Shown: positions 44,506 through 64,000 of the stretch, one piece after another
Layout: every line of letters begins with the position of its first letter
Position numbering within the stretch: position 1 is the first letter of the stretch
Source: Escherichia phage vB_EcoM_ESCO47
Strand: one strand, 5' to 3'
DNA: 64,000 nt
Sequence record: OM386662.1
Notes under the pieces: model-generated
Seen by the model: the letters and a program-made list of their open reading frames with translations, nothing else
Database searches by the model: none
What the model was told of the DNA's origin: nothing
Position numbers and translations under genes: made by a program

Positions 44506-44515
44506 CGTTTCTACA

Positions 44516-44545: not shown

Positions 44546-44573
44546 AGTCCTATCAAAACAAGAGGAGAACACT

Positions 44574-46332: not shown

Positions 46333-46511
46333 TGGATTTAATGAGCATGTTTGATGAGCCTGAAGTTGAGGCTCCTAAAGCACAACGTGGAGAACTCGTT
46401 GACGAACTGGACATTATTATACAGCGTCACGGGTTTAATCTTCCTATAGAAGTCCTGAAAGACCTAGCGTCTTACTACGATGATCCACCTCCTTGGGCCC
46501 CTTGGTCATAA
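46332..46511 (+). CDS. Small acidic ORF (59 aa)
   Basis: TAATG coupling; below ORF-track cutoff. Confidence 0.3.
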   Translation: MDLMSMFDEPEVEAPKAQRGELVDELDIIIQRHGFNLPIEVLKDLASYYDDPPPWAPWS

Positions 46512-46596
46512 CAGTTATCCCTCCTTAACGACGTGGTATCCAACTATCACGTCGCCTCTTAGAGTATACATCACTCACAATTTAGCCGAATTTTTA

Positions 46597-46626
46597 GTGT
46601 ACATCCTTAAAGAACAGTGTTACTAT
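46597..46626 (+). promoter_or_regulatory. T4-type early promoter
   Basis: GTGTAC, 18-nt spacer, TACTAT, TCTCCTATCAA box. Confidence 0.5.
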
Positions 46627-46654
46627 TCTCCTATCAACTTCAGGAGAAATCAAA

Positions 46655-47266: not shown

Positions 47267-47339
47267 CCGGATTGGAATAACCGGAAGGAACTCAGAACCA
47301 TTATAATACATAAATTTTTAAAGCATTTTACGAAAAAGA

Positions 47340-47368
47340 GTGTACAATACCTGAGAACATGATACTAC
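47340..47368 (+). promoter_or_regulatory. T4-type early promoter
   Basis: GTGTAC, 17-nt spacer, TACTAC, AGACTTATCAG box. Confidence 0.4.
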
Positions 47369-47417
47369 AGACTTATCAGCTAAATGCCCCAACGTCCGTA
47401 AGACGGAAGAAAATATT

Positions 47418-48170
47418 ATGAAATTATCAAACATCCAAATCAAGAAAATCGAACGTCGTTTAGATCACACCAGAGCTTCTGCAAAGAGGCGCTCTAAGGA
47501 TTTTAACTTAGACTTTAATTACCTTAAAAACATTCTTGATCAAAAGGTCTGCGCTTACTCAGGTGAAACCTTTGATAACAAGGTTGAAGGTGAGAAATTA
47601 TCCTTAGAACGTTTTAATAACGATATCGGTTACATTAAAGGTAACGTTATTCCTGTCAAGAAAAAATATAACGCAGCACGTTCAGATTTTACTTTAGCCG
47701 AACTCATCGAGAAACGTGAAATAATCGCTGGACGTATCGCTACTCCTAGCGCAAAGAAAGTTGAAAAGCTTAATCTCGATGAAAAGAAATGGGCTGAAAT
47801 CAAACACACTTATACACAAATTAAAAATATCCAAAACAAACGTAAGAGCCGTATCGATCATATTGAAAAAATGACTAAAGGTAAAAGCACCTTATCTAAA
47901 GAAGACCAATTAAAAGTTGTCGGATTAAAAGCCCGCATCGATGGTTCCAGAGTTGCCGAAGGACGTGAAGTAACAAAGTTAAATGTTCTTCTTAAAGGTT
48001 CTGATTGGAAAACTAAAACCAAGTTATCCGACGCAGAAACGCTTTTTGATACATATGATAAAGTTATCCAAGGATTACAACGTTTCGAAAAGATTGGTTT
48101 CATCGGTAAATTAAAATTGAAACGTGGTTTACCACTTAACACTTCTATCTTTAAATTGATTAAAGGTTGA
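47418..48170 (+). CDS. Basic 250-aa protein in the T4 srd position
   Basis: Positional only; Lys/Arg-rich. Confidence 0.35.
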   Translation: MKLSNIQIKKIERRLDHTRASAKRRSKDFNLDFNYLKNILDQKVCAYSGETFDNKVEGEKLSLERFNNDIGYIKGNVIPVKKKYNAARSDFTLAELIEKREIIAGRIATPSAKKVEKLNLDEKKWAEIKHTYTQIKNIQNKRKSRIDHIEKMTKGKSTLSKEDQLKVVGLKARIDGSRVAEGREVTKLNVLLKGSDWKTKTKLSDAETLFDTYDKVIQGLQRFEKIGFIGKLKLKRGLPLNTSIFKLIKG

Positions 48171-48171
48171 T

Positions 48172-48483
48172 ATGATGTATTATGCTTATTCAATAGCTTA
48201 TCGGGATTTCGAAGGATTCGTCCAACCGGTTCAGCTAGACTCTGAAAAACCGGCAATATTTTTTAAAAAGGAAGTTGCTGACAAAGTTTTCGATTATATT
48301 AAAAAGGAATACAAACAGGCTTTACGCATGGGAAGAATGAAAATGGTGGTTACACCTCGTAAGTTTTGGTTTGATAAAGTCGAAATGAAACATATAAAAT
48401 TAGATGAGGAGACTGAAAAATTATACCGACGAATTCTTGAAACAGGACGAGTCATTCGTGTACAGGTGGCAGGATTATTATGA
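48172..48483 (+). CDS. Hypothetical protein (dda.1 position)
   Basis: 103-aa ORF, ATGA coupling to dda. Confidence 0.4.
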   Translation: MMYYAYSIAYRDFEGFVQPVQLDSEKPAIFFKKEVADKVFDYIKKEYKQALRMGRMKMVVTPRKFWFDKVEMKHIKLDEETEKLYRRILETGRVIRVQVAGLL

Positions 48484-49793
48484 AATTTGATGATTTGACG
48501 GACGGCCAGAAAAACGCCTTTAATGTTGTTATGAAGGCAATCAAAGAAAAGAAACACCATGTAACTATTAATGGTCCGGCTGGTACAGGTAAAACAACAC
48601 TCACACGGTTTATTGTTGAAGCTCTTATTTCAGCAGGTGAATCAGGTGTTATCTTAGCAGCCCCGACTCACGCCGCCAAAAAGGTTCTAAGTAAATTGGC
48701 CGGACAAGAAGCATCTACTATCCATAGTATTCTTAAAATCAACCCAACAACATACGAAGAAAACGTGTTATTTGAACAGAAACAGGCTCCTGATCTGGCA
48801 CTATGTCGAGTATTAGTGTTTGATGAAGCATCGATGTGTGATCGAAAACTTTTCCAGATTATGTTGGCAAGTATTCCAAAATGGTGTACAGTAATTGGCG
48901 TAGGTGACAGATGTCAGATTCGTCCTGTTGACCCAGGTGAAACAACAGCATATTTGAGCCCATTCTTTACGCATAAAGATTTTGTCCAATGTGACCTTAC
49001 AGAAGTCAAACGTAGTAATGCACCAATTATTGATGTTGCTACCGATATTCGTAATGGTAAATGGATTTATGATAAAATTGTTGACGGACATGGCGTTCAT
49101 GGCTACACTGATTTAAAATCATATATGATGAACTATTTTAATATCGTCAAAACGCCGGAAGACCTTTTCGAAAATCGAATGATGGCCTTCACAAATAAAT
49201 CTGTGGATAAATTAAATTCTGTTATTCGACGTAAGCTTTATCAAACAGAAGCTCCATTTATTAAAGATGAAGTTATTGTCCTTCAAGAACCTGTCACCAA
49301 GTCGTATAAACTCGATGGCAAAAATATGACTGAAATGCTTTTCAATAATGGCCAATTCGTTCGTATTAGAGACGCAGTTGAAACGTCCACATTTGTTAAA
49401 GCAAAGGGTGTTCCAGGCGAATATATGATACGATACTGGAATCTTAGTATTGAAACCTACGGTGATGATGAAGAATATAACAGAGAAGATATAAAGGTTA
49501 TTTCTTCGGATGAAGAGCTTTACAAATTTAATCTATTTTTAGCAAAAACAGCTGAAACGTATAAGTTCTGGAATAAAGGCGGTAAAGCTCCTTGGAATGA
49601 TTTCTGGGATGCTAAGCGAATGTTCACAAAGGTTAAAGCCCTTCCGGTATCAACCTTCCATAAAGCACAAGGTATGTCTGTTGATACGGCCTTTGTTTAT
49701 ACACCGTGTATCCATTACGCTGATTCTGAATTAGCAAAACAACTTCTGTACGTCGGTGCCACTCGTGGACGATTTGACGTCCATTATATTTGA
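48480..49793 (+). CDS. dda: DNA helicase Dda (SF1)
   Basis: 437 aa; MKFDDLTDGQKNAFNVVMKAIKEKKHHVTINGPAGTGKTT matches my recollection of T4 Dda. Confidence 0.9.
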   Translation: MKFDDLTDGQKNAFNVVMKAIKEKKHHVTINGPAGTGKTTLTRFIVEALISAGESGVILAAPTHAAKKVLSKLAGQEASTIHSILKINPTTYEENVLFEQKQAPDLALCRVLVFDEASMCDRKLFQIMLASIPKWCTVIGVGDRCQIRPVDPGETTAYLSPFFTHKDFVQCDLTEVKRSNAPIIDVATDIRNGKWIYDKIVDGHGVHGYTDLKSYMMNYFNIVKTPEDLFENRMMAFTNKSVDKLNSVIRRKLYQTEAPFIKDEVIVLQEPVTKSYKLDGKNMTEMLFNNGQFVRIRDAVETSTFVKAKGVPGEYMIRYWNLSIETYGDDEEYNREDIKVISSDEELYKFNLFLAKTAETYKFWNKGGKAPWNDFWDAKRMFTKVKALPVSTFHKAQGMSVDTAFVYTPCIHYADSELAKQLLYVGATRGRFDVHYI

Positions 49794-49804
49794 TTGAGGA
49801 AATT

Positions 49805-50482
49805 ATGAATAATGATGTTATTATAGACTTTGAAACATTCGGTAATACGTCTAAAGCTGCGGTTATTGACCTTGCAGTTATTGCGTATAATTCCAACCCT
49901 GAAGTCGTAGAGACGTTTGAAGAACTCGTTCAACGTGGTAAACGAATTAAATTTAATCTTGCTTCACAGAAAGGAAAACGTGTTTTTGCTAAGACTACTA
50001 TGAAATGGTGGAAAGAGCAGTCAGATGAAGCTCGCAAAAACTTGGCACCAACTGAAGACGATGTTACCACTTTAGAGGGTATTAAAATCTTTTTGGACTA
50101 TTGCCGAGATAATAAAGTGGACCAATGGAAATCACAGATGTGGTGTCGTGGTATGAGCTTTGACTTTCCGATTCTGGTTGATTTAATTCGAGATCTTTAT
50201 CGTGACGAAGGTGTCCCAGAAGCAGAAATCGATACTGATAAACTTGAACCGGTTAAATTCTGGGCTCAACGTGACATCCGTACTGCAATTGAAGCTTACT
50301 CGTTGACGCGTGGATTAAGTATGTGTCCATTGCCAATGGGTACATTAAAAGGATTCGTTGCCCACGACAGTATTCATGATTGTGCTAAAGATATTTTGAT
50401 GTTAAAATATGCTCAACGTTATGCACTTGGACTTGAAGATGTGCCCGAGAATCCAGACCCATTAAGTGTAAAACAACGATAA
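49805..50482 (+). CDS. dexA: Exonuclease A (DEDD 3'-5' exonuclease)
   Basis: VIIDFETFGN exo I motif, HDSIHDCAKD exo III-like; position after dda. Confidence 0.7.
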   Translation: MNNDVIIDFETFGNTSKAAVIDLAVIAYNSNPEVVETFEELVQRGKRIKFNLASQKGKRVFAKTTMKWWKEQSDEARKNLAPTEDDVTTLEGIKIFLDYCRDNKVDQWKSQMWCRGMSFDFPILVDLIRDLYRDEGVPEAEIDTDKLEPVKFWAQRDIRTAIEAYSLTRGLSMCPLPMGTLKGFVAHDSIHDCAKDILMLKYAQRYALGLEDVPENPDPLSVKQR

Positions 50483-50486
50483 AACA

Positions 50487-50515
50487 GTTTACATCCTCTG
50501 TAGATATGTTATAAT
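50487..50515 (+). promoter_or_regulatory. T4-type early promoter
   Basis: GTTTAC, 17-nt spacer, TATAAT, TCTATCAACTACAGAGG box. Confidence 0.55.
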
Positions 50516-50556
50516 TCGTTCTATCAACTACAGAGGTAAGTAATACGATTACTGAT

Positions 50557-51048
50557 ATGGATCTAGCAAGTATGTACGGCACTCTTATTAAACCATTAAA
50601 AATTAAGGAACCAAAAATGGCTATCAAAATCGGCAAAACCTACAAACTGGTTGAACCTGAAATTAAAACTCCTGTACTGGTCGCTTCATATCATACTTTA
50701 AGCCTCCTTTTAGGTGATGAAGATTTCGAAATCGTATCTTTTAAAAGACATGTTTGGTTTGAAGGTTATGAAATAACGACTCGTCATCGTTCTTCAGGCC
50801 GAGTGGAAAATATTACTGTTTATACACACGAACTCGAGTTGTTTGAAGAATTGGTTCAAAAAGTTGTTGAAGACCCCACCGATCTTCTGTGTAAAGCAGT
50901 AAGCATTCGTCGTCCATTTGATAATCGTCGGATTTGTGGATGGGTAACTGATCAGTGGATTGAAGATGGTGTTGAGCTCTTGAACGTGGTCCATGATGGT
51001 GATTTTACTGTATGTCCACGTAGTGCAGTGGTTAATGTATTGAATTAA
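50557..51048 (+). CDS. Hypothetical protein in motB position (start may be ATG 50617)
   Basis: 163-aa ORF; positional. Confidence 0.4.
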   Translation: MDLASMYGTLIKPLKIKEPKMAIKIGKTYKLVEPEIKTPVLVASYHTLSLLLGDEDFEIVSFKRHVWFEGYEITTRHRSSGRVENITVYTHELELFEELVQKVVEDPTDLLCKAVSIRRPFDNRRICGWVTDQWIEDGVELLNVVHDGDFTVCPRSAVVNVLN

Positions 51049-51051
51049 TAG

Positions 51052-51080
51052 TTTTACTTCTCCTCTAGACATGATACTAT
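51052..51080 (+). promoter_or_regulatory. T4-type early promoter
   Basis: TTTTAC, 17-nt spacer, TACTAT, AACTTATCAACTAGAGGAG box. Confidence 0.45.
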
Positions 51081-51106
51081 AAACTTATCAACTAGAGGAG
51101 AATAAT

Positions 51107-51634
51107 ATGTTAGTTTATCGAGTAGAACGTAGTTTTTGTACCCAAAGAGAATATTTGCCTTCAGTCGGATACGAAAACGGTGAAATGGTTCGTACCTGGG
51201 AGATATCCTGGAATAAAGAACCACGCTCACCTTACGGATGGTCTGGCACCGACAACTCTGAAGAAACCTGGGAATTCCTTGATAAACACGGGATATTGTC
51301 AGGCAACTTCTATCATAACGACGGCAATATAAACGCCCCTAATCGTCCTACAATCAAAAATGATCACCTCTTATCAAAAAATATTTTAAAACAAAATAAC
51401 CTTGATTTCATAGACCAAATAGCTGATTGGTTAGAGACAGGTGAATTTTACTTTGCGTTTGATACGGTCGACACGGTGTACCGATGGTTTGATAACTCCG
51501 ATGACATAGAACTCTTGAAGGCTAAAGGTTACTACATCGCGGTCTATGATGCTCCTGACGTCATTTTAGGCGACTCTCAACTTTTGTTCAAACGTTCTTC
51601 GGCAGAACAAGTTGATTTTATTTTAATAAAATGA
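51107..51634 (+). CDS. Hypothetical protein
   Basis: 175-aa ORF. Confidence 0.45.
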   Translation: MLVYRVERSFCTQREYLPSVGYENGEMVRTWEISWNKEPRSPYGWSGTDNSEETWEFLDKHGILSGNFYHNDGNINAPNRPTIKNDHLLSKNILKQNNLDFIDQIADWLETGEFYFAFDTVDTVYRWFDNSDDIELLKAKGYYIAVYDAPDVILGDSQLLFKRSSAEQVDFILIK

Positions 51635-51663
51635 TGTACAAACTGATAGTATTTTGTTACTAT
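51635..51663 (+). promoter_or_regulatory. T4-type early promoter
   Basis: TGTACA, 17-nt spacer, TACTAT, AGACCTATCAA box, GAGGAG RBS. Confidence 0.5.
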
Positions 51664-51691
51664 AGACCTATCAAAACAAGAGGAGAACATT

Positions 51692-51886
51692 ATGAAAACT
51701 TTATTAACTCAAGATCAATTTGAAGATATCCTTTTCGACCCAGAATTAGTTGTTGTTCAAAAAGAAATTACTAGTGGTCTTGAACACCATTCTTACGTAT
51801 ACGTTTATGAAAATGACAAACCAGTTATGGTTGCAGTACGTCACATCACAGGCGAAGGCACAACTTACTGGAAGGAAGCAATCTAA
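51692..51886 (+). CDS. Hypothetical protein
   Basis: 64-aa ORF. Confidence 0.4.
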
Positions 51887-52308
51887 TGGCTATTAAATTT
51901 GAAGTTAACAAATGGTACCAATTTAAAGATAAACGTGCCCAAGAAGAGTTTATTAAAGACCACACTGATAATGGGATTTATGCACGACGTCTTGGCATGG
52001 AACCATTTAAAGTATTAGATGTTGACCATCTTGGTCGTCCTACTAAAATTGTGACATCTACTGGCATGGTTGGATACGCAACAGGCGGTGATATCCTTGA
52101 TGAAAACTTTATCTGGCTCTCCACGAATGAAGCAGAGTTCTTTGTCGAAGTTGGAAATCCATACCAGGCAGCTGAAGAACAAGAACATGAAGAGCAAGAA
52201 CCAATGCCAGAATTGACTGAGTTCCCTTTACTGAAAGTTACTATTGAAAATAATGAACAAGCATGGTCTTTGTATCAAATGTTGAAAGCTCACTTTAAGG
52301 AACAATAA
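51886..52308 (+). CDS. Hypothetical acidic protein
   Basis: 140-aa ORF, TAATG coupling. Confidence 0.45.
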
Positions 52309-52487
52309 TGCCGTTATACGACTATAAATGCCAATCTGAAGATTGTGGTCATGAATATGAAAAAATTAAAAGAATTTCTGAACGAGAAAACGATGTTTGC
52401 CCTGAATGTCATCGTCTGTCTACTCGTCGGGTTTCTGCTCCTAAACATGTGAACGGTGGTTTTTACGACTTACTTAAGAAGGATTGA
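52308..52487 (+). CDS. FmdB-like zinc-ribbon small protein (59 aa)
   Basis: [18 protein letters not shown]...CPECH; below ORF-track cutoff. Confidence 0.4.
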   Translation: MPLYDYKCQSEDCGHEYEKIKRISERENDVCPECHRLSTRRVSAPKHVNGGFYDLLKKD

Positions 52488-52489
52488 TT

Positions 52490-52915
52490 ATGGCTTTTAA
52501 AGGTTTTGAAGTTGGTAAGAAATATCGTATTATCAAAGGACAGGAAGATAATTTCTTGAGAATTCTTAATACGACTGGTAAACGTCTTAATACTAATCTG
52601 CATACTACTTTATTGTCCAAAGATTTTATTGTGGAAGAGATGATTGGTTATGGTGTTTCGATTATTGCTGTAGAAGCTGTAGGCGATTACGGCCGAACTA
52701 TTCATAGTATGCAAGGTGATATTCTGCTTTATGGTGCAGAATTTAAATTCTTTGAAGAAGTTCCGGAACCAGATACAGCTGTCGATTTCAAAAAAGGCTC
52801 TATAGAATTTGTTGATGGTTCGGTGATCGTATCAGGCGATGTGGTCATTACAGTTAAAAGTGAACAAGGGCGTTTGGCTGCAATTGATGCACTTCAGAAA
52901 ATTAAATTTAAATAA
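52490..52915 (+). CDS. Hypothetical protein
   Basis: ORF-track start 52484 is TTG; ATG 52490 more plausible. Confidence 0.45.
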   Translation: MAFKGFEVGKKYRIIKGQEDNFLRILNTTGKRLNTNLHTTLLSKDFIVEEMIGYGVSIIAVEAVGDYGRTIHSMQGDILLYGAEFKFFEEVPEPDTAVDFKKGSIEFVDGSVIVSGDVVITVKSEQGRLAAIDALQKIKFK

Positions 52916-52932
52916 GGGCTTCGGCCCTTTTT
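52915..52932 (+). terminator. Rho-independent terminator with TTCG tetraloop
   Basis: AGGGC-TTCG-GCCCT then TTTTT. Confidence 0.55.
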
Positions 52933-52956
52933 GCTTTAGATTTCGGATGATAGAAT
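52932..52956 (+). promoter_or_regulatory. MotA-box middle promoter upstream of gene 39
   Basis: TGCTTTA then 19 nt to TAGAAT; GGATGATAGAAT shared with the gene 47 promoter. Confidence 0.45.
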
Positions 52957-52978
52957 ACCTTCATAACGAGGAGACAAC

Positions 52979-54796
52979 ATGATTAAAAATGAAATTAAAG
53001 TATTATCAGACGTAGAACATATTAAGAAACGTAGTGGTATGTATATTGGTTCTTCGGCTAAAGAAGCACATGAGCGTTTTTTGTTTGGTAAATATCAACA
53101 AGTTGAATATGTTCCTGGTCTGGTTAAATTAATCGATGAGATTATTGACAACTCGGTTGATGAAGCTATTCGTACATCATTTAAGTTCGCAAATAAAATT
53201 GATGTGCAAATTAAAAATAATCAAGTTTCGGTGGAAGATAACGGACGTGGTATTCCTCAAGGTTTAGTTACCGACCAAACAGGTGAACAAATTCCTGGGC
53301 CTGTAGCAGCCTGGACTATTCCAAAGGCCGGCGGTAACTTTGGCGATGACTCTGAACGCAAGACCGGTGGTATGAACGGCGTCGGGAGTAGTTTAACTAA
53401 TATCTTCTCTACGTTGTTTACAGGCATCACGTCAGATGGCGAAAATGAAATCACTGTTAATTGTTCAAACGGAATGGAAAACAAATCATGGTCTTCTAAG
53501 AAATCTAAAGGTAAAGGAACTAAAGTAATCTTCACTCCTGATTTCTCTTCATTTGAAGAGCATAATTTATCTCAAATTTATTTAGATATTACTTTAGACC
53601 GACTTCAAACATTGGCAGTCGTTTATCCTGATATCAAGTTCACATTTAATGGTAAAAAGGTTGATGGTAATTTTAAACGATTTGCTAAACAATTTGGCGA
53701 AGATAACATCATTCAAGAAAACGATAAAGTGTCAATCGCATTCACAACATCGCCTGACGGTTTTCGACATTTGACGTATGTGAACAACATTCATACTAAA
53801 AATGGTGGACATCATGTTGAATGTGTAATGGATGATATCTGCGAACATCTTTTGCCCGGTATTAAAAAGAAATATAAGGGTATTGAGGTAACTAAAGCTC
53901 GTGTTAAAGAATGTCTCACGATGCTGATGTTTATTCGTGATATGAGCAACATGCGTTTTGATTCTCAGACTAAAGAACGTTTAACGTCAACGTATGGTGA
54001 TATTCGTAATCATATCCAATTAGATGCTAAGAAAATTGCTCAGTCACTTCTTAAAAATGAAGCTCTGATTATGCCTATTGTTGAAGCAGCATTAGCTCGT
54101 AAATTAGCAGCAGAAAAGGCCGCCGAAACTAAAGCAGCTAAAAAGGCCACTAAAGCAAAAGTTCATAAGCATATTAAAGCTAATCAATGTGGTAAAGATG
54201 CAGATACGACATTGTTCTTAACAGAAGGTGATTCGGCAATTGGTTATCTCATTGATGTTCGTGACCGTGAACTACACGGCGGATTCCCATTACGTGGTAA
54301 GGTGATGAATAGCTGGGGTATGTCATATGCTGATATGATGAAGAACAAAGAGCTCTTTGATATCTGTGCTATCACAGGTCTTATTCTCGGTGAAAAGGCA
54401 GAGAACACGAACTATCGTAATATCGCAATTATGACCGATGCCGATCATGACGGTCTTGGAAGTATCTATCCGGCTTTGCTTGCTTTCTTTAGTAATTGGC
54501 CTGAATTGTTTGAACAAGGACGTATTCGCTTTGTTAAAACTCCGGTAATTATTGCACAAATTGGCAAAACACAAAAATGGTTTTATACTGTAGCTGAGTA
54601 TGAAGAAGCTAAAGAATCATTACCAAAACACGGTATTCGATATATTAAAGGACTTGGTTCACTTGAAAAATCCGAATACCGTGAAATGATTCAGAATCCA
54701 GTTTATGACGTAGTTAAATTGCCTGAAAACTGGAAAGAGTTGTTTGAAATGTTGATGGGTAATGACCCGGATCTTCGTAAAGAATGGATGTCCTAA
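52979..54796 (+). CDS. 39: Topoisomerase II large subunit gp39 (GyrB-like), single uninterrupted ORF covering the gene 60 region
   Basis: 605 aa; GHKL ATPase motifs (ELIDNSVDE, GRGIP) and TOPRIM-like C-terminus in one frame. Confidence 0.9.
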   Translation: MIKNEIKVLSDVEHIKKRSGMYIGSSAKEAHERFLFGKYQQVEYVPGLVKLIDEIIDNSVDEAIRTSFKFANKIDVQIKNNQVSVEDNGRGIPQGLVTDQTGEQIPGPVAAWTIPKAGGNFGDDSERKTGGMNGVGSSLTNIFSTLFTGITSDGENEITVNCSNGMENKSWSSKKSKGKGTKVIFTPDFSSFEEHNLSQIYLDITLDRLQTLAVVYPDIKFTFNGKKVDGNFKRFAKQFGEDNIIQENDKVSIAFTTSPDGFRHLTYVNNIHTKNGGHHVECVMDDICEHLLPGIKKKYKGIEVTKARVKECLTMLMFIRDMSNMRFDSQTKERLTSTYGDIRNHIQLDAKKIAQSLLKNEALIMPIVEAALARKLAAEKAAETKAAKKATKAKVHKHIKANQCGKDADTTLFLTEGDSAIGYLIDVRDRELHGGFPLRGKVMNSWGMSYADMMKNKELFDICAITGLILGEKAENTNYRNIAIMTDADHDGLGSIYPALLAFFSNWPELFEQGRIRFVKTPVIIAQIGKTQKWFYTVAEYEEAKESLPKHGIRYIKGLGSLEKSEYREMIQNPVYDVVKLPENWKELFEMLMGNDPDLRKEWMS

Positions 54797-54818
54797 GCTC
54801 CTTCGGGAGCTTTATTTT
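54796..54818 (+). terminator. Putative terminator with TTCG tetraloop
   Basis: AGCTCC-TTCG-GGAGCT then TTATTTT. Confidence 0.5.
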
Positions 54819-54838
54819 AATTTTAATAAGGCTTAATT

Positions 54839-55939
54839 ATGAAAGTTATGTTTATCCCATCTCGTGCAGTCCCATTTAATCCTGACCGTGTACAAGGTGG
54901 TCTTGAAGCGGTACATTTAAATGTGTTGAAATATTTAGTTTCTATCGGTGCCGATATTGATTATATCGGTTTTGATAACGACACATTTGGTGATTGGAAA
55001 GTTACACACCATCCTGTTGGCCATCTTACTAAATTCAGTCTAGGTATGAGTTATACTATGGCTCGTAAGATTGTTGAACTGGCCGGCATCCATGAATACG
55101 ATTTTGTTGTTACTATGGAACCGACTAAACTAACCGTTCAGGCAATTAAAGACGCAGGTCTCTCTAAAGTTCATAAGAATTTTATGGCAACACCATTTGA
55201 ACCTGTATCTCGTGGCATTGTTCAAATTTGGGACCAGACTATTCAAATTCATAAGAACGGTGGTAAGAGTTATGCTCCTACTAAAGCCTTCCGTGAATTT
55301 GAACGCAAATATTGTCATATGACTTCAGGTCTGACAGACAAAATTGATTATGATTATTGGCGAGCAAATCCGTTGTTTGAAGCCGAAGATTATCCGGTTA
55401 TTTGTTTGAATGAGAAACCTGAAGTTCTTCCAGCAACTGATCTGATTATTAGTGCACAACGTTATGACACTAAAATGCGTCGTACTGATGTTGCTCTTGA
55501 AGCGATTAAAGCGCTCGGCGAAAATGGTGCAGGATACTGTCCTAGTAAATGGGCACCACCGGCTAAGTATCCAGTAACTATTGATGCTCCACATAGTGAA
55601 ATCATGGAACGCCTTAAAACAGCTAAAGCACTTATCAATACGTGTCCTGACACCGGCACGGTAGAGAATAGTTCTATTGAAGCTATTTCTAAAGGTGTAC
55701 CTGTGATTCAGCTAGTCTTTAAAGATTATCCACATGCTACGTTTGAATATGACCCTGACACGGTACGTGTAGAGATTGATGCTTCCACCCCTAAGAAAGA
55801 AGTAGTTATGCTTTACACAAAAGCTGTATTAGAATTCACTGACACATACGAATCACGAGTCAAACGTGCAGAATATGTATGGCAAAAGTATAATCGGGAT
55901 GCAGTTGTAGCGATGTGGGATAAAATCTTCACAGCGTAA
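54839..55939 (+). CDS. GT-B (GT4-like) glycosyltransferase, candidate DNA hmC glycosyl/arabinosyl-transferase
   Basis: N-terminal MKVMFIPSR...GGLEAVHLNVLKYL and C-terminal ENSSIEAISKGVPVI resemble GT4 motifs; lies between 39 and rIIA. Confidence 0.55.
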   Translation: MKVMFIPSRAVPFNPDRVQGGLEAVHLNVLKYLVSIGADIDYIGFDNDTFGDWKVTHHPVGHLTKFSLGMSYTMARKIVELAGIHEYDFVVTMEPTKLTVQAIKDAGLSKVHKNFMATPFEPVSRGIVQIWDQTIQIHKNGGKSYAPTKAFREFERKYCHMTSGLTDKIDYDYWRANPLFEAEDYPVICLNEKPEVLPATDLIISAQRYDTKMRRTDVALEAIKALGENGAGYCPSKWAPPAKYPVTIDAPHSEIMERLKTAKALINTCPDTGTVENSSIEAISKGVPVIQLVFKDYPHATFEYDPDTVRVEIDASTPKKEVVMLYTKAVLEFTDTYESRVKRAEYVWQKYNRDAVVAMWDKIFTA

Positions 55940-56031
55940 ATCCTGAATAGCCTGAGGCACTATTACACATAAGATGATAAATTATATGGTCTTTGGTAAT
56001 AGTGTCATAGGAATCTACTGAAGAGAATATT

Positions 56032-56232
56032 ATGAGAACATATAACGTGGACTTGGAACTTTTTGATAAAGCGGTGCTCCGGGAATTCCGGCTTATCCAA
56101 AGATTTTTTGATATCGAGTCAGCAGAGTCCTTTAAAGAACGCTTTAAAGAAATTCGATATAAAATACAAACCGATACAGCTACTAAAGAAGAACTTCTTG
56201 AAGTAGCAGAAATTTTTAAACGTAACTTGTGA
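56032..56232 (+). CDS. Hypothetical protein (rIIA.1 position)
   Basis: 66-aa ORF. Confidence 0.4.
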   Translation: MRTYNVDLELFDKAVLREFRLIQRFFDIESAESFKERFKEIRYKIQTDTATKEELLEVAEIFKRNL

Positions 56233-56244
56233 CGAGAGAAAAAT

Positions 56245-58458
56245 ATGATTATTGAAACGGCTAAAGAAACGATTATTGGTTCAGGCGGTAAGAGCACAGC
56301 ATTCACTATTCAAGCAAACAGTAAAGTGTATAAGATTCTTTCTAACGATCTTTACACAAACAAAGAACGAGCTTGTGTACGTGAATTAATCACAAACTGT
56401 ATTGATGGGCAAATTCTTAATGGCTGCACTGATAAGTTTATTGTTCAGGCACCAGGTCGTTTAGACCCACGTTTTGTAGTTCGAGACTTTGGTCCTGGTA
56501 TGAGTGATTTCACCATTCGAGGTAATGACGAAGAGCCAGGAATTTATAACTCATATTTTGCTTCAACTAAAACATCGAGTAACGATTTCATTGGTGGATT
56601 CGGACTCGGTTCTAAAGCTCCATTAGCATATACTGATACGTTTAACATTACTTCTTATCATAATGGTGAAGTTCGTGGTTATGTAATTTATCAAGATGAC
56701 AGTGGTCCACAGATTAAGCCAACCTTCGTAGATAAGATGGGTCCTGATGACCGGACCGGTGTTGAAGTAGTTGTGCCTGTTAACCCAGAAGATTTTGAAA
56801 AGTTCGCATCCGAAATTGCTTATGTTATGCGTCCTCTCGGCGATATTGCAGAAGTTCGTGGTGTTAAAGATATCAAATACTTCCCTGATTTCGACGACGT
56901 TTATCTGGCCAAGGATGCTCCATGGGGTGAACGTGGTAACATCATGGCTGTTTATGGTGGTATTGTATATCCTATCAGTGACGCTATTAAAGAACAAACA
57001 TGGATGATGACGCGATGCACTACAGCTTATATTAAATTCCCCATGGGTGAACTAGATGTAGCCCCGTCTCGTGAAGCATTGTCATTTGATAAACGTACAG
57101 TAGCAAATATCCATAAACGTGTTGCAGAAATTGATGCAAAATTATTTGCTGAAGATTCTAAGAAATGGATTGATTGTGAATATCCACGTCATGTATTCCG
57201 TGAAATCGATTCTCTTGGTTACTCTGCTCGTAAATACATGGAAAAAGCTGGTTCTAATATTGAATCACTGAAATATTCTAAAGAACAGCTAACTTATTCT
57301 GAGTTGTACAAACGTTTTAAAATGGGTCCTGAATGGTGCAACCTTGGTGTTGTATACGATATCGTTTCAGACCCACGTCTTCGTCGTATTCGTGAAAGCG
57401 GAAGCTCGTCTGCAACTATTTCAATTAATAGCCTGCTAGGTATTAGCCGTAAGCATATTGATATTGTTATTGACGATGTGAAAGGCCGCGTACCAATGAT
57501 GCGTGCTCTGAACGATGCTTTGACTTCCACTGATGCATCAACACTCGTTGATAAGGTTCCTTCCGGATGGGGTAGTAGCGTATTATTCATTAACCCGGAA
57601 GATGAAGTTGCAATGAAACTTCTAGAACGATTAAAGGTTATTTTCGCTGGGGATAGCCTTAAATTTTATAAGACATCTGAAATTCTTGCATTAGTTAAAC
57701 CGTGGATTGAAGTTAAAGAACGTTCATCGCAGCCTCGTCCTAAATCCCCAAGTGCTCATCGGTTCTTTAAGAATGAAAACGATGTTTGGGTATCAGAAGA
57801 TCTCTTTATTCCAGCGAGTGAAGCTGATGAAATCCAAGGTTATGCTATAGTTCGTAATCGTTCTAATGCTGAATGTCTTGACGCAGATAAAGGTTGGTTG
57901 AACTATGACTCCAATTTCTTGACCCGTATTGCTGATTTGTCAGGTATTAAAGAGTTCACTGTAGTCCGTCCACAGATTGCTAAGAAAGTTCGTAAACTTG
58001 GTGAAGTAGAATGCTTGTTCGAAAAATCAATTAATGACTATATTACGCTAATTGATAAAGTGGATTATGATGAGTATGTATCACCAAGTCGTAGAGCACA
58101 GCCTTATTTGAATCATATTACTCGTAATGAAGAGCTTAACTTCCTTAGTAAGTATTTTAGCTCTAAGAACAAAGAAATCAGTAAAGATTTTGCAAAACTT
58201 TCAACAGTAAATAATCGTTGGGGATGGAATCGATTCTCAGGTGTTACTAACAGAGAACTGAATAAGAAGTTGGAATTGTGTGCTAAAATTTTCGATAAGC
58301 TTAAAGATAATGCTTACGATAATGATGATAAAATGGTTATTGAATTCGAAACCAATTATCATATTGTGTCAGACTACATGGGACGACGTGGTACTCTTTC
58401 CAAAGAACAGGTCGCTCAAATCGTTAAATTCATGAAGGCCGTGGAAGCGGCCAAATAA
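56245..58458 (+). CDS. rIIA: rIIA protein
   Basis: 737 aa; N-terminal VRELITNCIDG...DFGPGMSD...GGFGLGSK GHKL-type ATPase fold. Confidence 0.9.
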   Translation: MIIETAKETIIGSGGKSTAFTIQANSKVYKILSNDLYTNKERACVRELITNCIDGQILNGCTDKFIVQAPGRLDPRFVVRDFGPGMSDFTIRGNDEEPGIYNSYFASTKTSSNDFIGGFGLGSKAPLAYTDTFNITSYHNGEVRGYVIYQDDSGPQIKPTFVDKMGPDDRTGVEVVVPVNPEDFEKFASEIAYVMRPLGDIAEVRGVKDIKYFPDFDDVYLAKDAPWGERGNIMAVYGGIVYPISDAIKEQTWMMTRCTTAYIKFPMGELDVAPSREALSFDKRTVANIHKRVAEIDAKLFAEDSKKWIDCEYPRHVFREIDSLGYSARKYMEKAGSNIESLKYSKEQLTYSELYKRFKMGPEWCNLGVVYDIVSDPRLRRIRESGSSSATISINSLLGISRKHIDIVIDDVKGRVPMMRALNDALTSTDASTLVDKVPSGWGSSVLFINPEDEVAMKLLERLKVIFAGDSLKFYKTSEILALVKPWIEVKERSSQPRPKSPSAHRFFKNENDVWVSEDLFIPASEADEIQGYAIVRNRSNAECLDADKGWLNYDSNFLTRIADLSGIKEFTVVRPQIAKKVRKLGEVECLFEKSINDYITLIDKVDYDEYVSPSRRAQPYLNHITRNEELNFLSKYFSSKNKEISKDFAKLSTVNNRWGWNRFSGVTNRELNKKLELCAKIFDKLKDNAYDNDDKMVIEFETNYHIVSDYMGRRGTLSKEQVAQIVKFMKAVEAAK

Positions 58459-58467
58459 GGAAACATT

Positions 58468-59403
58468 ATGTACAATATCAAATGCTTGTCCCAAGAAGAA
58501 CAGTTAGAAGCTTACGGCCTGGTTGAATCAGGCAAATGGACCCGTAAAGAAATTGCCGATTACTTTGACATTTCAACAGATACTCTTCGTAAGATTGTTA
58601 AGAATTTTAAAGCTGAAGAGAAAGCCTCTGAATTTGAAGACGAAGAACAGGTCCCAGAAAATAATGAACCTATTATTACAGGTCATCGTCCAGAAATCGT
58701 ATGGAACGCGTCGTCTAAATTTATTTCAATTATTGAAGGACGCGATTCATATAATGCGACACCAACAAGCCATGCGAATTTTGAAGAAATTAAAGCTAAT
58801 TTGGTCGCAGGAAACTTTGCTAAAGCTATCGAACTTATTAACCTCAAGAAAGCTATTACTAAGTATGTTGATGGTAATATTATTATTGAAGGTGGTCGCC
58901 TATTTTATCAAGGAATAGAAATTCGTTCAGGACTTGTCGATCGTATTATCGACTCTATGGAAAAAGGCGAAGACTTTAAATTTTATCTGCCATTCCTTGA
59001 AAACTTGTTAGAAAACCCAAGTGAAAAAGCAGTTCAACGCTTATTCGACTTCTTGGTTGCAAACGATATTGAAATCACTGAAGACGGTCATTTCTACGCA
59101 TGGAAAGTAGTTCGTAAAGACTATTTAGATTGCTATAGTGGCACATTTGATAACTCGCCTGGTAAAGTTGTTTCAATGCCTCGTACTCGTGTTAACGATG
59201 ATGATACTCAAACTTGTTCCAGTGGTCTACATGTTTGTGCTAAATCATATATTCGTTACTTTGGTTCTAGCTCAGATAAAGTTGTTAAGGTTAAAGTTCA
59301 TCCACGTGATGTTGTATCCATCCCAGTTGACTACGGTGATGCTAAGATGCGTACTTGTCGTTATGAAGTAATTTCAGACGTTACTGAATTATTTGCAGAA
59401 TAA
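58468..59403 (+). CDS. rIIB: rIIB protein
   Basis: 311 aa; MYNIKCL start and FLENLLENPS...DFLVANDIEITEDG region match my recollection of T4 rIIB. Confidence 0.9.
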   Translation: MYNIKCLSQEEQLEAYGLVESGKWTRKEIADYFDISTDTLRKIVKNFKAEEKASEFEDEEQVPENNEPIITGHRPEIVWNASSKFISIIEGRDSYNATPTSHANFEEIKANLVAGNFAKAIELINLKKAITKYVDGNIIIEGGRLFYQGIEIRSGLVDRIIDSMEKGEDFKFYLPFLENLLENPSEKAVQRLFDFLVANDIEITEDGHFYAWKVVRKDYLDCYSGTFDNSPGKVVSMPRTRVNDDDTQTCSSGLHVCAKSYIRYFGSSSDKVVKVKVHPRDVVSIPVDYGDAKMRTCRYEVISDVTELFAE

Positions 59404-59408
59404 TAATT

Positions 59409-59430
59409 GGGGACTTCGGTCCCCTTTTTT
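59409..59430 (+). terminator. Rho-independent terminator with TTCG tetraloop
   Basis: GGGGAC-TTCG-GTCCCC then TTTTTT. Confidence 0.65.
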
Positions 59431-59444
59431 CTTTAGGGGTAATT

Positions 59445-59732
59445 ATGATTCATCCATTTGACGTATCAGAATCCAAAATTGCTAATCTTCGCGGTCATCA
59501 TAAGTGTAAATCAGTTTATTGTGCTAAATTGGTAAAACATCCTGGCGATGCACACTACGGCTGGTTAGAATGTGACGAAGTTGTTATTGAAATCCCTCCT
59601 GTGGATGCAGAATACCTTGAAGAAGGTGATCGCATTTATTTAGGTGAACTACATATTAGAGGTATCTATGGTAAAGACGAACTTGGGACTACTGAGACTG
59701 AAGAGTCTTCCGACATTTATCCTGTCGAATGA
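59445..59732 (+). CDS. Hypothetical protein
   Basis: 95-aa ORF. Confidence 0.4.
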   Translation: MIHPFDVSESKIANLRGHHKCKSVYCAKLVKHPGDAHYGWLECDEVVIEIPPVDAEYLEEGDRIYLGELHIRGIYGKDELGTTETEESSDIYPVE

Positions 59733-59748
59733 GTTTCTGACTAGCGAA

Positions 59749-60225
59749 ATGAAGGTAAAGATCGCGGATACAGCCAAGTATTCTCTTAGTCAAGACCCTG
59801 ATCAAATCAAAGAAGACGTAGTTCGTCGTTGTAAGGTTGCAGTCTTTGCCGAGTATGTAGTCGCTAATTGGTTAGATGGATATGTTAATAAAGGCATTGA
59901 AGATGTTGAAGACCCTTACACGTATGCATGGGATGTTCTAGCTCATCCTAAATACTGTGGATTGCGTGTAGAAGTCAAGACTCATCAGATGGACTCACGT
60001 TGGATTTCAGTCACTACAGGATATAGTGGCGATTATCCGGGTGGTAATGGAATCAATATAGGGCCCTTCTTGAATCATCGAGTCGCAGATTGCATTATTA
60101 TATTAAATGCCAAAGAAACCTCACCTGACGTCTTCTCTTATTCTATAAAGTTCGCGGGAGACCATGAAGACCTAAAGAAAATCGTCCGCAAGAGCAACTA
60201 CAACGGGTGGTATCTTCATCTTTAA
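59749..60225 (+). CDS. Hypothetical protein in the T4 denB position
   Basis: ATG 59749 follows upstream stop; ORF-track 59644 start overlaps previous gene; positional only. Confidence 0.35.
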   Translation: MKVKIADTAKYSLSQDPDQIKEDVVRRCKVAVFAEYVVANWLDGYVNKGIEDVEDPYTYAWDVLAHPKYCGLRVEVKTHQMDSRWISVTTGYSGDYPGGNGINIGPFLNHRVADCIIILNAKETSPDVFSYSIKFAGDHEDLKKIVRKSNYNGWYLHL

Positions 60226-60237
60226 TTTCATAAAAGT

Positions 60238-60268
60238 GTTTACAGCTAAGTAGGACTATGATATAGTA
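60238..60268 (+). promoter_or_regulatory. T4-type early promoter
   Basis: GTTTAC ... TATAGTAGTCCTATC box, GGAGG RBS. Confidence 0.5.
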
Positions 60269-60293
60269 GTCCTATCTAAAGGAGGATAACATC

Positions 60294-60557
60294 ATGAAAT
60301 TTAAATTTTTCTACGCAAAACATAAAGTGACCGGTGAGTTTGTTTCAATGTACAACACCGCAGATGACGAAGGGATGATTTATACCCATTTGGGTCTATC
60401 TCATTGGGATTCAGACGTGCCTTATATGTCATCTGAAGCCGAAATAACTCGTCTGGTTAATGGACATATGAACGACCATTTTGGTGTTATTCTTTCTAAA
60501 GACCTTAAAGAGGTTATCAACAAAGGATATATGGAACTCGCGGAAGTTGAGATATGA
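60294..60557 (+). CDS. Hypothetical protein
   Basis: 87-aa ORF. Confidence 0.4.
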   Translation: MKFKFFYAKHKVTGEFVSMYNTADDEGMIYTHLGLSHWDSDVPYMSSEAEITRLVNGHMNDHFGVILSKDLKEVINKGYMELAEVEI

Positions 60558-60749
60558 GCTCTAAAATGTGGATAGGAATATGGTTGCTTAGTATCCCAAT
60601 GATTTGTATAATATTTTCAATTGCATTGAGGTACTTATGAAAAATGCACTTCTTATTGTACTAAGAACAATTTGTGATACGGGTTTTTACATTGCATGTT
60701 CGTTCACTGGAACATGGTTGGCTTTAACATATTTTAATGTAATTTAATT

Positions 60750-60780
60750 GTTTACATCAAGGTAGGATTATGGTATAGTA
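60750..60780 (+). promoter_or_regulatory. T4-type early promoter
   Basis: GTTTAC ... TATAGTAGTCCTATCAA box. Confidence 0.5.
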
Positions 60781-60807
60781 GTCCTATCAAAATATGAGGA
60801 ACACAAA

Positions 60808-61008
60808 ATGACTAAGCTTTTTAAAGATGTTGAAATTGGTGAAAAATTTGTCCTGAATAATGGTCAGCAGCTTATTCGTGTAGCTTCTATAGCCGGACAA
60901 ACTCATAACTGCATCGCCCCGACGTATTGGACCCGATTCTTTATTGAGGATGACACCGAATGTTTAACTGTTGAAGAGCTTTTTGAACGTTCTGATATAA
61001 CCGAATAA
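60808..61008 (+). CDS. Hypothetical protein
   Basis: 66-aa ORF. Confidence 0.4.
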   Translation: MTKLFKDVEIGEKFVLNNGQQLIRVASIAGQTHNCIAPTYWTRFFIEDDTECLTVEELFERSDITE

Positions 61009-61084
61009 AATTGTACAAACTCCTGAGAGCAGAGTATAATGCTCTCATGGATTACAAAACATCAACTTACTTGAGGAAATTTAT

Positions 61085-61534
61085 ATGAACAATTACATGA
61101 CTCGTCGCGATATCCTGGCAGCTGGTGGTACTACGGTTGCTTACGTTCAGAATGGTAAATACCAGTCAGGTGAACCATCTAAAGCGGTTGCAGCACAACC
61201 TGGATTCTACTTCTTTGTTAAAGGTTTTAGTAACTCTCGTGTAGTAGCTGCCCGGTTTTATGTAGGTAATCAACGTTCTAAACAGGGACTTGATGGTATT
61301 GTAGCTAATATCCGTAAACAACGTTCTCAAGCTGCTCGCACCATGGCCACCAACAACGTAATTTACGAAGTGTTATACGTCCCAGCATCTAAGATGAAAC
61401 CTCTGACAACCGGCATTGGTAAAAGACAGTTAGTGATGGCTTTCACTCGCAATCACAGTTCAGATCTACAGACACTGGAAGAAATGAACCGAATTCTGGC
61501 CGACAACTTTAAATTCATCTTACAGAGTTACTAA
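61085..61534 (+). CDS. ndd: Ndd-position protein (nucleoid disruption in T4)
   Basis: 149 aa, position between rIIB and 52 as in T4; sequence identity not verifiable from memory. Confidence 0.45.
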
Positions 61535-61576
61535 TCCGGTAATAAAACGGCGTCTTAGGACGCCACTGGGGAAATT

Positions 61577-61741
61577 ATGCAACCGATTTTAACTTTTATC
61601 TGGTTAGTGACTGTTATTGTGTTGGTAACCCTTTTTGCAGCAGGTGTATGGGTTCCAGGTCCTTTTGTTGTTGGATTTATTTGTGTGTGGTTCATACTAG
61701 ACGCAATCGTTAAATTTTTAGTAACGGTATTTAACCGATGA
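61577..61741 (+). CDS. Small membrane ORF (54 aa) in the T4 ac position
   Basis: Hydrophobic; + strand alternative to the antisense ORF 61555..61749. Confidence 0.3.
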   Translation: MQPILTFIWLVTVIVLVTLFAAGVWVPGPFVVGFICVWFILDAIVKFLVTVFNR

Positions 61742-61882
61742 TTAAACAAATCTTTGGCTACTCGATAGCCCTTGCTGCTTTATTAGTGGCATTATATTAT
61801 GGTGTTATGTTCGGGCTAATCCAAGTCGTGCTTTTCATTTCTGATGTTATTATGGCACTACATTCACTAGTATGGTAAATTT

Positions 61883-63208
61883 ATGCAACTGAATAATCGT
61901 GATTTAAAAAGTATTATTGATAATGAAGCACTAGCGTATGCAATGTATACGGTTGAAAACCGTGCAATCCCAAACATGATTGATGGGTTTAAACCGGTTC
62001 AACGATTTGTTATTCATCGTGCATTGGACTTGGCTCGTGGAAACAAAGAAAAATTCCATAAACTGGCTTCAATCGCTGGTGGTGTAGCTGATCTCGGTTA
62101 TCACCACGGTGAATCTTCAGCACAAGATGCCGGTGCTCTGATGGCTAACACATGGAATAACAACTATCCATTATTAGATGGACAAGGCAACTTTGGTTCA
62201 CGAACGGTTCAAAAGGCTGCAGCATCTCGTTATATTTTTGCTCGTATCAGTAAAAATTTCTATAACGTCTATAAAGATTCTGAGTATGCTCCAGAACATG
62301 AAGATAAAGAACACGTTCCACCAAAATTCTATCTTCCAATTATCCCGACGGTTCTATTGAACGGTGTTTCTGGTATCGCAACCGGGTATGCAACAAGCAT
62401 TCTGCCTCATAGTTTTAAATCTGTTAAGAAGGCTGTATTACAAGCTCTTCAAGGTAAAAATATCACTAAGCCTAAAGTTGAATTCCCAGAGTTTCGCGGC
62501 GAAGTGCATGAAGTTGAAGACCGATATGAAATTCACGGCACATATAAATTCACATCTCGGACTCAAATGCAAATCACCGAGATTCCATATAAATTTGATC
62601 GTGAAACGTATGTGAGTAAAGTTCTCGACCCGTTAGAAGATAAAGGGTTGATTACATGGGAAGATGACTGCGGTGAACATGGTTTCGGATTTAAGGTGAA
62701 GTTCCGTAAAGAGTATTCGCTTCCGGACGATGAAGCTCTTCGTCATGAGAAAATCATGAAAGACTTTAGTCTTATTGAACGTCGTTCCCAGAACATTACT
62801 GTTATCAATGAAAAAGGCAAGTTGGCTGTATATGATAACGTTGTTGATTTGATTAAAGATTTTGTTGAAGTCCGTAAGACTTACGTTCAAAAACGTATTG
62901 ACAACAAAATCGTTGAATCAGAAAAAGCTTTTAAACTAGCTTTTGCCAAGGCGCATTTTATCAAGAAAGTTATTGCCGGTGAAATCGTGATTCAAGGCAA
63001 GACTCGTAAAGCTTTGACCGAAGAGTTATCACAAGTGGAAATGTATAAAGAACATGTAGACAAGTTAGTAGGTCTTAACATCTTCCATATCACATCAGAT
63101 GAAGCACGTAAACTAGCAGAAGAAGCTAAAGCTAAGAAAGAAGAAAATGAGTACTGGAAATCTACAGATGTCGTAGCAGAGTACACTAAAGACCTGGAGT
63201 CTCTATGA
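61883..63208 (+). CDS. 52: Topoisomerase II medium subunit gp52 (GyrA-like)
   Basis: 441 aa; N-terminus MQLNNRDLKSIIDNEALAYAMYTVENRAIPNMIDGFKPVQR matches my recollection of T4 gp52. Confidence 0.85.
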   Translation: MQLNNRDLKSIIDNEALAYAMYTVENRAIPNMIDGFKPVQRFVIHRALDLARGNKEKFHKLASIAGGVADLGYHHGESSAQDAGALMANTWNNNYPLLDGQGNFGSRTVQKAAASRYIFARISKNFYNVYKDSEYAPEHEDKEHVPPKFYLPIIPTVLLNGVSGIATGYATSILPHSFKSVKKAVLQALQGKNITKPKVEFPEFRGEVHEVEDRYEIHGTYKFTSRTQMQITEIPYKFDRETYVSKVLDPLEDKGLITWEDDCGEHGFGFKVKFRKEYSLPDDEALRHEKIMKDFSLIERRSQNITVINEKGKLAVYDNVVDLIKDFVEVRKTYVQKRIDNKIVESEKAFKLAFAKAHFIKKVIAGEIVIQGKTRKALTEELSQVEMYKEHVDKLVGLNIFHITSDEARKLAEEAKAKKEENEYWKSTDVVAEYTKDLESL

Positions 63209-63288
63209 GCTTCACAGGCCTAGCCCTCGGGTTCTTGGTCACAGTCACATTGTTAGTCATCTTACTTCTATGGTTAGACCGTGAATGA

Positions 63289-63309
63289 GGAGCCTTCGGG
63301 CTCCTTTTT
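63289..63309 (+). terminator. Rho-independent terminator with TTCG tetraloop
   Basis: GGAGCC-TTCG-GGCTCC then TTTTT. Confidence 0.6.
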
Positions 63310-63329
63310 GTGCATTTTTACACAAAACA

Positions 63330-63358
63330 GTTTACATGCGCGTCAAGCATGATATTAT
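63330..63358 (+). promoter_or_regulatory. T4-type early promoter
   Basis: GTTTAC, 17-nt spacer, TATTAT, AGACCTATCAA box. Confidence 0.55.
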
Positions 63359-63397
63359 AGACCTATCAAAACAAAACAACCATTTGGAGAAATAAAA

Positions 63398-64000
63398 TGT
63401 CTAAAGTTACTTACATCATCAAAGCTTCTGAAAACGTCCTGAATGAAAAAACCGCTGCGATAATGGTTTATATCATTAAGAACAACTTCTGCACCGCTGC
63501 TGATGTCCGTGAAGCCCTGGAAGCAGAATACAATGCATCAATTGTTAACTCTAACATTGGTGTACTGATTAAGAAAGGTTTAATCGAAAAATCAGGTGAT
63601 GGACTTGTAGCAACTGGTGAAGCAATGGATATAGTCCAGAAAGCAGCTGATCTGTTTGCTCAAGAAAATGCACCGGAACTTCTGCGGAAACGTAACACTC
63701 GTAAAGCTCGCGGAGTTACTCCTGAGATGCAAGTTCTTGCAGATTTTGTTTTCGAAAATATTAAAGACAAAGTTGAAGTTAAAGAAATTGGTGAAAACCG
63801 TAGTAACTTAGAAGTTCGATTCGCAAAACGAGTTTTAGGTATTCGTCAAATTGAAATTCGTCGAGATGGATGTCTTCGTATCTTTGCATACAACATGACA
63901 GAAACCGAGTCAAAACTGTTTACTTCTCTTGAAAACGGTGTTAAGATAAAAGTCGGTGGTAAATATACCTACATTGATTTCCCTAATGTAACAAAAGAAA
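63398..64000 (+). CDS. motA: Middle-transcription activator MotA (3'-truncated at window end)
   Basis: MSKVTYIIKASENVLNEKTA...NSNIGVLIKKGLIEKSGDGL matches my recollection of the T4 MotA N-terminal domain. Confidence 0.6.

Follow-up and report, generated by a model that had tools for sequence, protein, structure and literature searches.

A near-identical, already described counterpart of the gene considered here is ORF003c (gp3) of phage RB69, whose DNA chemistry has recently been revised. By MS/MS and NMR, the cytosines of RB69 were identified as beta-D-Araf-(1-3)-alpha-D-Araf-O-5-hydroxy-dC (Lee et al. 2026, PMC13326640), DNA of the Mosigvirus NP contains 5-ara-dC and 5-ara-ara-dC at a ratio of 1:4, and the former hmC assignment for RB69 has been called erroneous (both PMC13390438). 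PMC13326640 showed RB69 gp48 to be a 5-hydroxy-dCMP synthase that depends on flavin, and Asn at the position of E. coli ThyA D169 to be diagnostic of such enzymes; for the sugar transfers it proposes that gp46:47 acts first and that gp3 is 'beta-arabinosyltransferase 2'. The same study showed that gp76 and gp77 of the Acinetobacter phage DLP3 together transfer arabinose from UDP-Araf onto RB69 DNA in vitro, either protein alone being inactive and tri-arabinosylation requiring both. ORF003c itself had been picked as the RB69 arabinosyltransferase by Thomas et al. 2018 (PMC6024577), because it resembled T4 alpha-GT and GT4 enzymes in HMM and HHpred comparisons. Structures of the glycosyltransferase of phage HY126 were released on 2025-07-16 (PDB 9iqz, apo; 9ir0, with UDP), whose source, to judge by the phage name, is presumably the paper of He et al. 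2026 (Nat Chem Biol). Mahler et al. 2025 is cited for a mutant of Mosigvirus Bas46 that lacks an arabinosyltransferase 'Aat'. Di-arabinosyl-5-hydroxycytosine is a recently corrected phage DNA hypermodification that blocks many restriction enzymes and has reported effects on CRISPR and glycosylase defences, and assigning genes to its individual sugars is useful for phage engineering and for prediction of defence sensitivity.

We analyzed a stretch of 64,000 nucleotides of Escherichia phage vB_EcoM_ESCO47 (OM386662.1), hereafter the window, in which a glycosyltransferase gene lies downstream of gene 39 (Table 1). The encoded protein is 98% identical to RB69 ORF003c/gp3 (NP_861693.1) over the same length of 366 residues, and 358 of the 366 residues are identical to the sequence in PDB 9iqz/9ir0 (differences: G164A, A231V, T247I, A315F, M324A, S339A, Y346A and Q349K). 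None of these 8 differences falls at a family-invariant column, and all 9 substitutions relative to RB69 gp3 are at columns that vary within the family. We consider, with a probability of about 0.8, that the gene encodes an accessory DNA arabinosyltransferase of Mosigvirus, which would transfer the second, beta-1,3-linked arabinofuranose from UDP-Araf onto arabinosyl-5-hydroxycytosine DNA. The gene is already known: it was singled out in 2018, its structure became public in 2025 and a pathway role was proposed in 2025-2026. Nearly all of the 211 database records of the family go under the name 'DNA alpha-glucosyltransferase' or 'hypothetical protein', and what the analysis offers in practice is chiefly a corrected annotation, with arabinosyl-5-hydroxycytosine and not hmC as the acceptor. 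As for the origin of the DNA, 25 kb of the window (39001..64000) matched the nearest phage records with ~89% nucleotide identity at 88% coverage, and the window can be classed, from its letters, as RB69-like (Mosigvirus) phage DNA. The source genome is thus a somewhat divergent Mosigvirus-like one, yet its glycosyltransferase has diverged from that of RB69 by only 2% in protein sequence. In the HY126 genome, the GenBank protein differs from 9iqz solely at residues 288-289 (LG versus PV). Both residues belong to the GVPV motif, which is invariant elsewhere, and this points to an error in the sequence or to a difference in the construct.

Table 1. Features of the modification cluster and of the glycosyltransferase locus in the window.
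Feature	Coordinates	Strand	Basis
Arabinose-5-phosphate isomerase (= RB69 gp55)	29476..30108	+	Pfam SIS, E=1e-10; RB69 annotation
Bifunctional sugar kinase/NDP-sugar pyrophosphorylase (= RB69 gp52:53, HY126 AfhE), intact, 561 aa	30293..31978	+	Pfam NTP_transferase N-terminal; weak kinase matches C-terminal
Small ORF at the RB69 gp51 / HY126 AfhF position	31963..32364	+	Synteny only; no Pfam match
Peptidase U32-like gene (= RB69 gp50)	32422..33582	+	Pfam Peptidase_U32, E=6e-11; PMC13326640 Table 1
'Gene 42' homolog, predicted 5-hydroxy-dCMP synthase (ThyA superfamily)	33861..34577	+	Pfam Thymidylat_synt; D169N signature
Cluster glycosyltransferase GT1 (= RB69 gp46:47), intact, 299 aa	34577..35476	+	ORF; tblastn distribution; role proposed in PMC13326640
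Nucleotide kinase-like gene (= RB69 gp45)	35478..36026	+	Synteny with RB69; no Pfam match; role from PMC13326640 Table 1
Gene 39, fused topoisomerase II large subunit, 605 aa	52979..54796	+	Pfam DNA_gyraseB, HATPase_c, Toprim/TOPRIM_C; RB69 and T4 annotation
Predicted terminator-like hairpin, AAGCTCC-TTCG-GGAGCTT then T-run	54795..54812	+	Consensus scan and reading of letters
Target glycosyltransferase, 366 aa	54839..55939	+	ATG start; ortholog of RB69 ORF003c/gp3 and HY126 GT
rIIA.1, 66 aa	56032..56232	+	ORF; gene order as in annotated RB69 and HY126 records
rIIA, 737 aa	56245..58458	+	Positional ortholog of RB69 rIIA; gene order as RB69 and HY126

A first-pass annotation of the window, made from its letters alone, had described a 366-aa ORF between gene 39 and rIIA, and this description held for the ORF, for its flanks and for the terminal strings that it quoted: the N-terminus reads MKVMFIPSR...GGLEAV and the C-terminal motif reads ENSSIEAISKGVPVI, both exactly as given there. 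A succession of 366 sense codons has p ~1.5e-12 at the composition of the window (37% G+C). The gene shows 76 nucleotide differences from its RB69 ortholog, corresponding to 59 synonymous and 9 nonsynonymous codons, and its G+C contents at codon positions 1, 2 and 3 are 0.54, 0.38 and 0.27, respectively, which mark it as a genuine coding gene under strong purifying selection.

A gap of 42 nt separates the stop of gene 39 from the target gene, and the order gene 39–glycosyltransferase–rIIA.1 is identical to that in RB69 and in HY126, where the ortholog occupies the same slot (PP658200.1, 85243..86343); the Mosigvirus glycosyltransferase is likewise placed between gene 39 and rIIA.1 in PMC13390438. 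The gene order of T4 is rIIA-rIIA.1-60-60.1-mobA-39, in agreement with the first-pass remark that T4 has no glycosyltransferase here, and in Dhakavirus JS98 the same slot carries no gene, with 588 bp unannotated between rIIA.1 and gene 39 (segment 2437..3024). Because the contents of the slot differ between T4 (60, 60.1 and mobA) and JS98 (empty), the gene 39/rIIA.1 junction can be regarded as a variable slot. A recent foreign insertion was considered and rejected, as the G+C content of the target gene (0.38-0.41) is like that of its surroundings. Regarding the flanking genes, gene 39 of the window is fused and has neither the split into 39 and 60, nor the mobA insertion, nor the translational bypass seen in T4, and the 737-aa rIIA ORF gave zero matches to Pfam models.

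The family assignment of the protein depended on the type of search. It hit no Pfam family at E<=10 and no NCBIfam model, and the gathering scores of Pfam Glycos_transf_1 (PF00534) and Glyco_transf_4 (PF13439) were not reached; relatives gave only sub-threshold GT4-conflict matches. In PHROGs, it matched an unknown-function family, 8302, over its full length (residues 1-366 of 366, E=2.6e-220), along with a weak match to a glycosyltransferase PHROG (E=0.086). A word-indexed homolog search returned 5 clusters and an exhaustive profile search returned 13, these being the only matches among 1.84 billion representative proteins; the family profile retrieved 9iqz alone from all PDB sequences. Pfam identifies the weakest 3 of the 13 matches (E=3e-5 to 3e-4) as Glyco_transf_4 or Glycos_transf_1 proteins, and alignment of the target family with these three GT4 proteins by hhalign gave 98.7% probability (E=1.6e-16, 253 columns). 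In this alignment, the invariant R208 falls on the invariant Arg of GT4 and the invariant E281 on the second Glu of EX7E, while the position of the first Glu is G273 in the target family, which instead has an invariant E276, giving E276-x4-E281.

The structural comparison was in line with the profile alignment. An AlphaFold2 model of the target had a moderate pLDDT of 72, with residues 117-187 below 50, and a TM score of 0.55 to the HY126 crystal structure. With this model, Foldseek retrieved the HY126 structures at the top and only GT-B enzymes below them, the leading neighbours being the retaining GT4 enzymes PimA, LmbT, tetrahydrobiopterin glucosyltransferase, WaaG, MshA and BshA; the alpha- and beta-glucosyltransferases of T4 (AGT and BGT) were absent among the top neighbours. 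The protein thus has the two-Rossmann-domain GT-B fold, as the first-pass annotation had anticipated for structure prediction. The GT4 hallmarks that it had read from the letters stood at the level of profile and structure and failed in Pfam and NCBIfam, and the HMM classification that it had suggested came out in the same divided way, since no library model matched whereas the family profile reached Pfam-verified GT4 proteins. On the agreement of the fold search with the profile-profile alignment, we call the protein a GT4-like GT-B enzyme, but leave it outside the GT4 families of Pfam and CAZy. It shares with CAZy GT4 (PimA, MshA, BshA, WaaG, LmbT and sucrose-phosphate synthase) the two Rossmann domains of GT-B, the N-terminal GG loop, an Arg aligned with the invariant Arg of GT4 and an 'EAxxxGxPVI' motif with the second EX7E Glu, and differs from it in the E276-x4-E281 arrangement, in a conserved segment of its own (117-187) and in the proposed substrates, a sugar on DNA as the acceptor and a furanose as the donor sugar.

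The remaining pathway genes lie in a cluster in the same window, which carries, as RB69 does alongside gp3, a 5hodCMP synthase, a UDP-Araf cluster and GT1 (Table 1). HY126 AfhE, the counterpart of the kinase/pyrophosphorylase, is reported to make UDP-arabinofuranose, as cited in PMC13326640, and RB69 gp51 / HY126 AfhF is given in the same paper as a HAD-like Araf-1,5-bisphosphate phosphatase. ORFs 46/47 and 52/53 of the RB69 record are single intact ORFs of 299 and 561 aa here, which supports the published view that the splits in RB69 are sequencing errors. Like the target, GT1 is covered by no Pfam or NCBIfam model and is named 'hypothetical protein', or 'DNA alpha-glucosyltransferase' in some Acinetobacter phages, in public records; the possibility that the two are paralogs was considered and rejected, as there is no sequence similarity between them. 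Alignment of the synthase revealed RSQN in the window, as in RB69 gp48 and DLP1_078, compared with RSND in T4 gp42 and RSCD in E. coli ThyA. This D169N signature, taken with the published chemistry of RB69 and NP DNA, points to 5-hydroxycytosine, not hmC, as the predicted acceptor base.

Three other readings of the target were weighed. The hexose reading, in which the target would transfer glucose onto hmC DNA like the T4 alpha- or beta-glucosyltransferase, has in its favor the HHpred similarity to T4 alpha-GT mentioned above (PMC6024577) and the name 'putative DNA alpha-glucosyltransferase' that the homolog bears in some Acinetobacter phage records. The T4 enzymes are indeed also phage GT-B proteins that act with a UDP-sugar on modified cytosine in DNA and serve against restriction; they differ, however, in base (hmC), in sugar (glucose), in acceptor (a hydroxyl of the base, compared with a sugar hydroxyl for the target) and in genome position, and the synthase of the window does not have the Asp of T4 gp42 at the D169 position that a gp42-type hmC acceptor would call for. 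We regard this reading as the least probable of all. Scarcely more probable is that the target glycosylates something other than DNA, for example a protein or glycans of the host envelope, and sits in an early-gene hot spot by chance. The enzymes nearest to it in structure work on lipids, small molecules and polysaccharides, the Mosigvirus gene is 20 kb away from the modification cluster, and a divergent family member is found in the structural-gene module of an unrelated phage contig. On the other hand, the Acinetobacter homologs are located directly 3' of the arabinosylation cluster, their DLP3 counterparts modify DNA in vitro, and all lineages in which the searched phage records showed the family are ones with known or predicted DNA arabinosylation.

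The more serious question is which of the sugars the target adds. That it would be the first-sugar enzyme, attaching arabinose to the modified base itself, was the original proposal of 2018 for ORF003c (PMC6024577) and the leading reading of the first-pass annotation. Purified DLP3 glycosyltransferases, including the presumed first enzyme gp79, were inactive on 5hoC DNA in vitro (PMC13326640), so that in this work GT1 is a proposed and not a demonstrated enzyme of the first step. The distribution speaks against it. By tblastn, GT1 was found in 348 phage records, covering Mosigvirus, Dhakavirus and phages of Klebsiella, Serratia, Yersinia, Edwardsiella, Pectobacterium, Proteus, Providencia and Acinetobacter, and it was present in each arabinosylating lineage sampled. 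The 211 records of the target family are made up of ~155 of Mosigvirus with one copy, 55 of Acinetobacter phages with two tandem copies, both directly after the cluster kinase, and one of Tegunavirus; GT1 was present in every target-GT genome as judged from genus counts and sampled rows. Dhakavirus JS98, Klebsiella Marfa-like phages, Serratia LC53, Yersinia TG1 and Proteus phages arabinosylate with GT1 and without the target family, and the mono-arabinosylated Thanatos reportedly has a single ara-GT, which is syntenic to GT1 (PMC13326640). Moreover, the number of target-family copies (0, 1 or 2) matches the DNAs reported as mono- (Thanatos), di- (RB69 and NP) and tri-arabinosylated (DLP3), that is, it follows the extra sugars and not arabinosylation as such. 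We therefore hold a base-proximal role to be unlikely.

The narrower distribution compared with GT1, the match of copy number to sugar number and the activity of the DLP3 homologs instead argue that the target is most likely an extension enzyme adding the second arabinose. Of the two activities offered at first pass, transfer of a sugar onto hmC DNA or extension of a first sugar, the latter is thus favored by distribution and copy number, while hmC is contradicted by the D169N signature and by the RB69 and NP chemistry. The DLP3 proteins gp77 and gp76 (DLP1_075 and DLP1_074) are 43% and 40-41% identical to the target over the full length, respectively, with ~100 invariant positions; in this Acinetobacter Lazarusvirus they are known as DNA arabinosyltransferases 2/3, form a tandem pair in the cluster and are associated with tri-arabinosylation. 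In a neighbour-joining tree, the Acinetobacter gp77 and gp76 paralogs clustered together with 96% bootstrap and the Mosigvirus clade fell outside, the duplication being specific to the Acinetobacter-phage lineage. Strict orthology of the target to gp77 was therefore rejected; the target is co-orthologous to gp76 and gp77, and the function of gp77 is not transferable to it by strict orthology. A rule of one enzyme for one sugar may also be too simple, since gp76 and gp77 are each inactive alone.

Taken as a pathway, the extension role would operate as follows. The ThyA-like synthase would lead to replacement of dC by 5-hydroxy-dC, the isomerase, kinase/pyrophosphorylase and phosphatase genes (29476..32364) would supply UDP-arabinofuranose, and GT1 would attach the first arabinofuranose, alpha-linked, to the 5-oxygen of the base. 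The target would then use UDP-Araf to link a further Araf, beta-1,3, to the O3 of this DNA-borne sugar, and the di-arabinosylated cytosine would make the genome resistant to restriction enzymes and other nucleases. That the target enzyme itself makes the second transfer is what we infer. Its UDP binding is expected from the 98%-identical HY126 protein (9ir0) and its use of UDP-Araf from the homologs gp76 and gp77, in both cases by analogy. The C-terminal domain would bind UDP-Araf, R208 and R214 lying close to the diphosphate and E281 at the ribose, and the segment 117-187, which is conserved and poorly modelled, may serve as an acceptor- or DNA-binding element. If the enzyme is retaining, as its GT4 relatives would suggest, a beta product would imply a beta-linked (1,2-cis) UDP-D-Araf donor.

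A broader proposal sees in the Mosigvirus enzyme the ancestral form, before duplication, of a GT4-like family of retaining furanosyltransferases with very few members, which would act on a sugar attached to duplex DNA and would be marked by the E-x4-E motif, by the 117-187 segment as a recognition element and by a beta-linked UDP-D-Araf donor. We consider this improbable; if true, and if not already settled by the HY126 structural work, it would define a new mechanistic subclass of DNA-modifying glycosyltransferase. Among the divergent members of the family, one of four contigs was long enough to inform on gene context. Its member, P0009 (~38% identity; contig L007, 10001..11140), is located within a structural and terminase module, and the contig does not look T4-like. 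The family may therefore not be limited to the modification clusters of Straboviridae.

As to regulatory-looking elements near the target gene, no dedicated promoter was found, sigma-70-like matches in the region numbering 12 against a shuffled expectation of 14.3. The gap between the glycosyltransferase and rIIA.1 contains an 11/12 sigma-70 consensus match on the minus strand (55981..56008), which is probably due to chance, as promoter-like matches in this region are no more frequent than shuffling predicts. An AAGG element resembling a Shine-Dalgarno sequence lies ~9 nt 5' of the target ATG. Terminator-like sites were enriched in the region (8 seen, 2.4 expected), and the predicted hairpin of Table 1 is located 27 nt 5' of the start codon of the glycosyltransferase, where it overlaps the gene 39 stop codon. 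A second GC-rich hairpin with a UUCG tetraloop and a T-run is present at 52914..52929, and the two hairpins flank gene 39.
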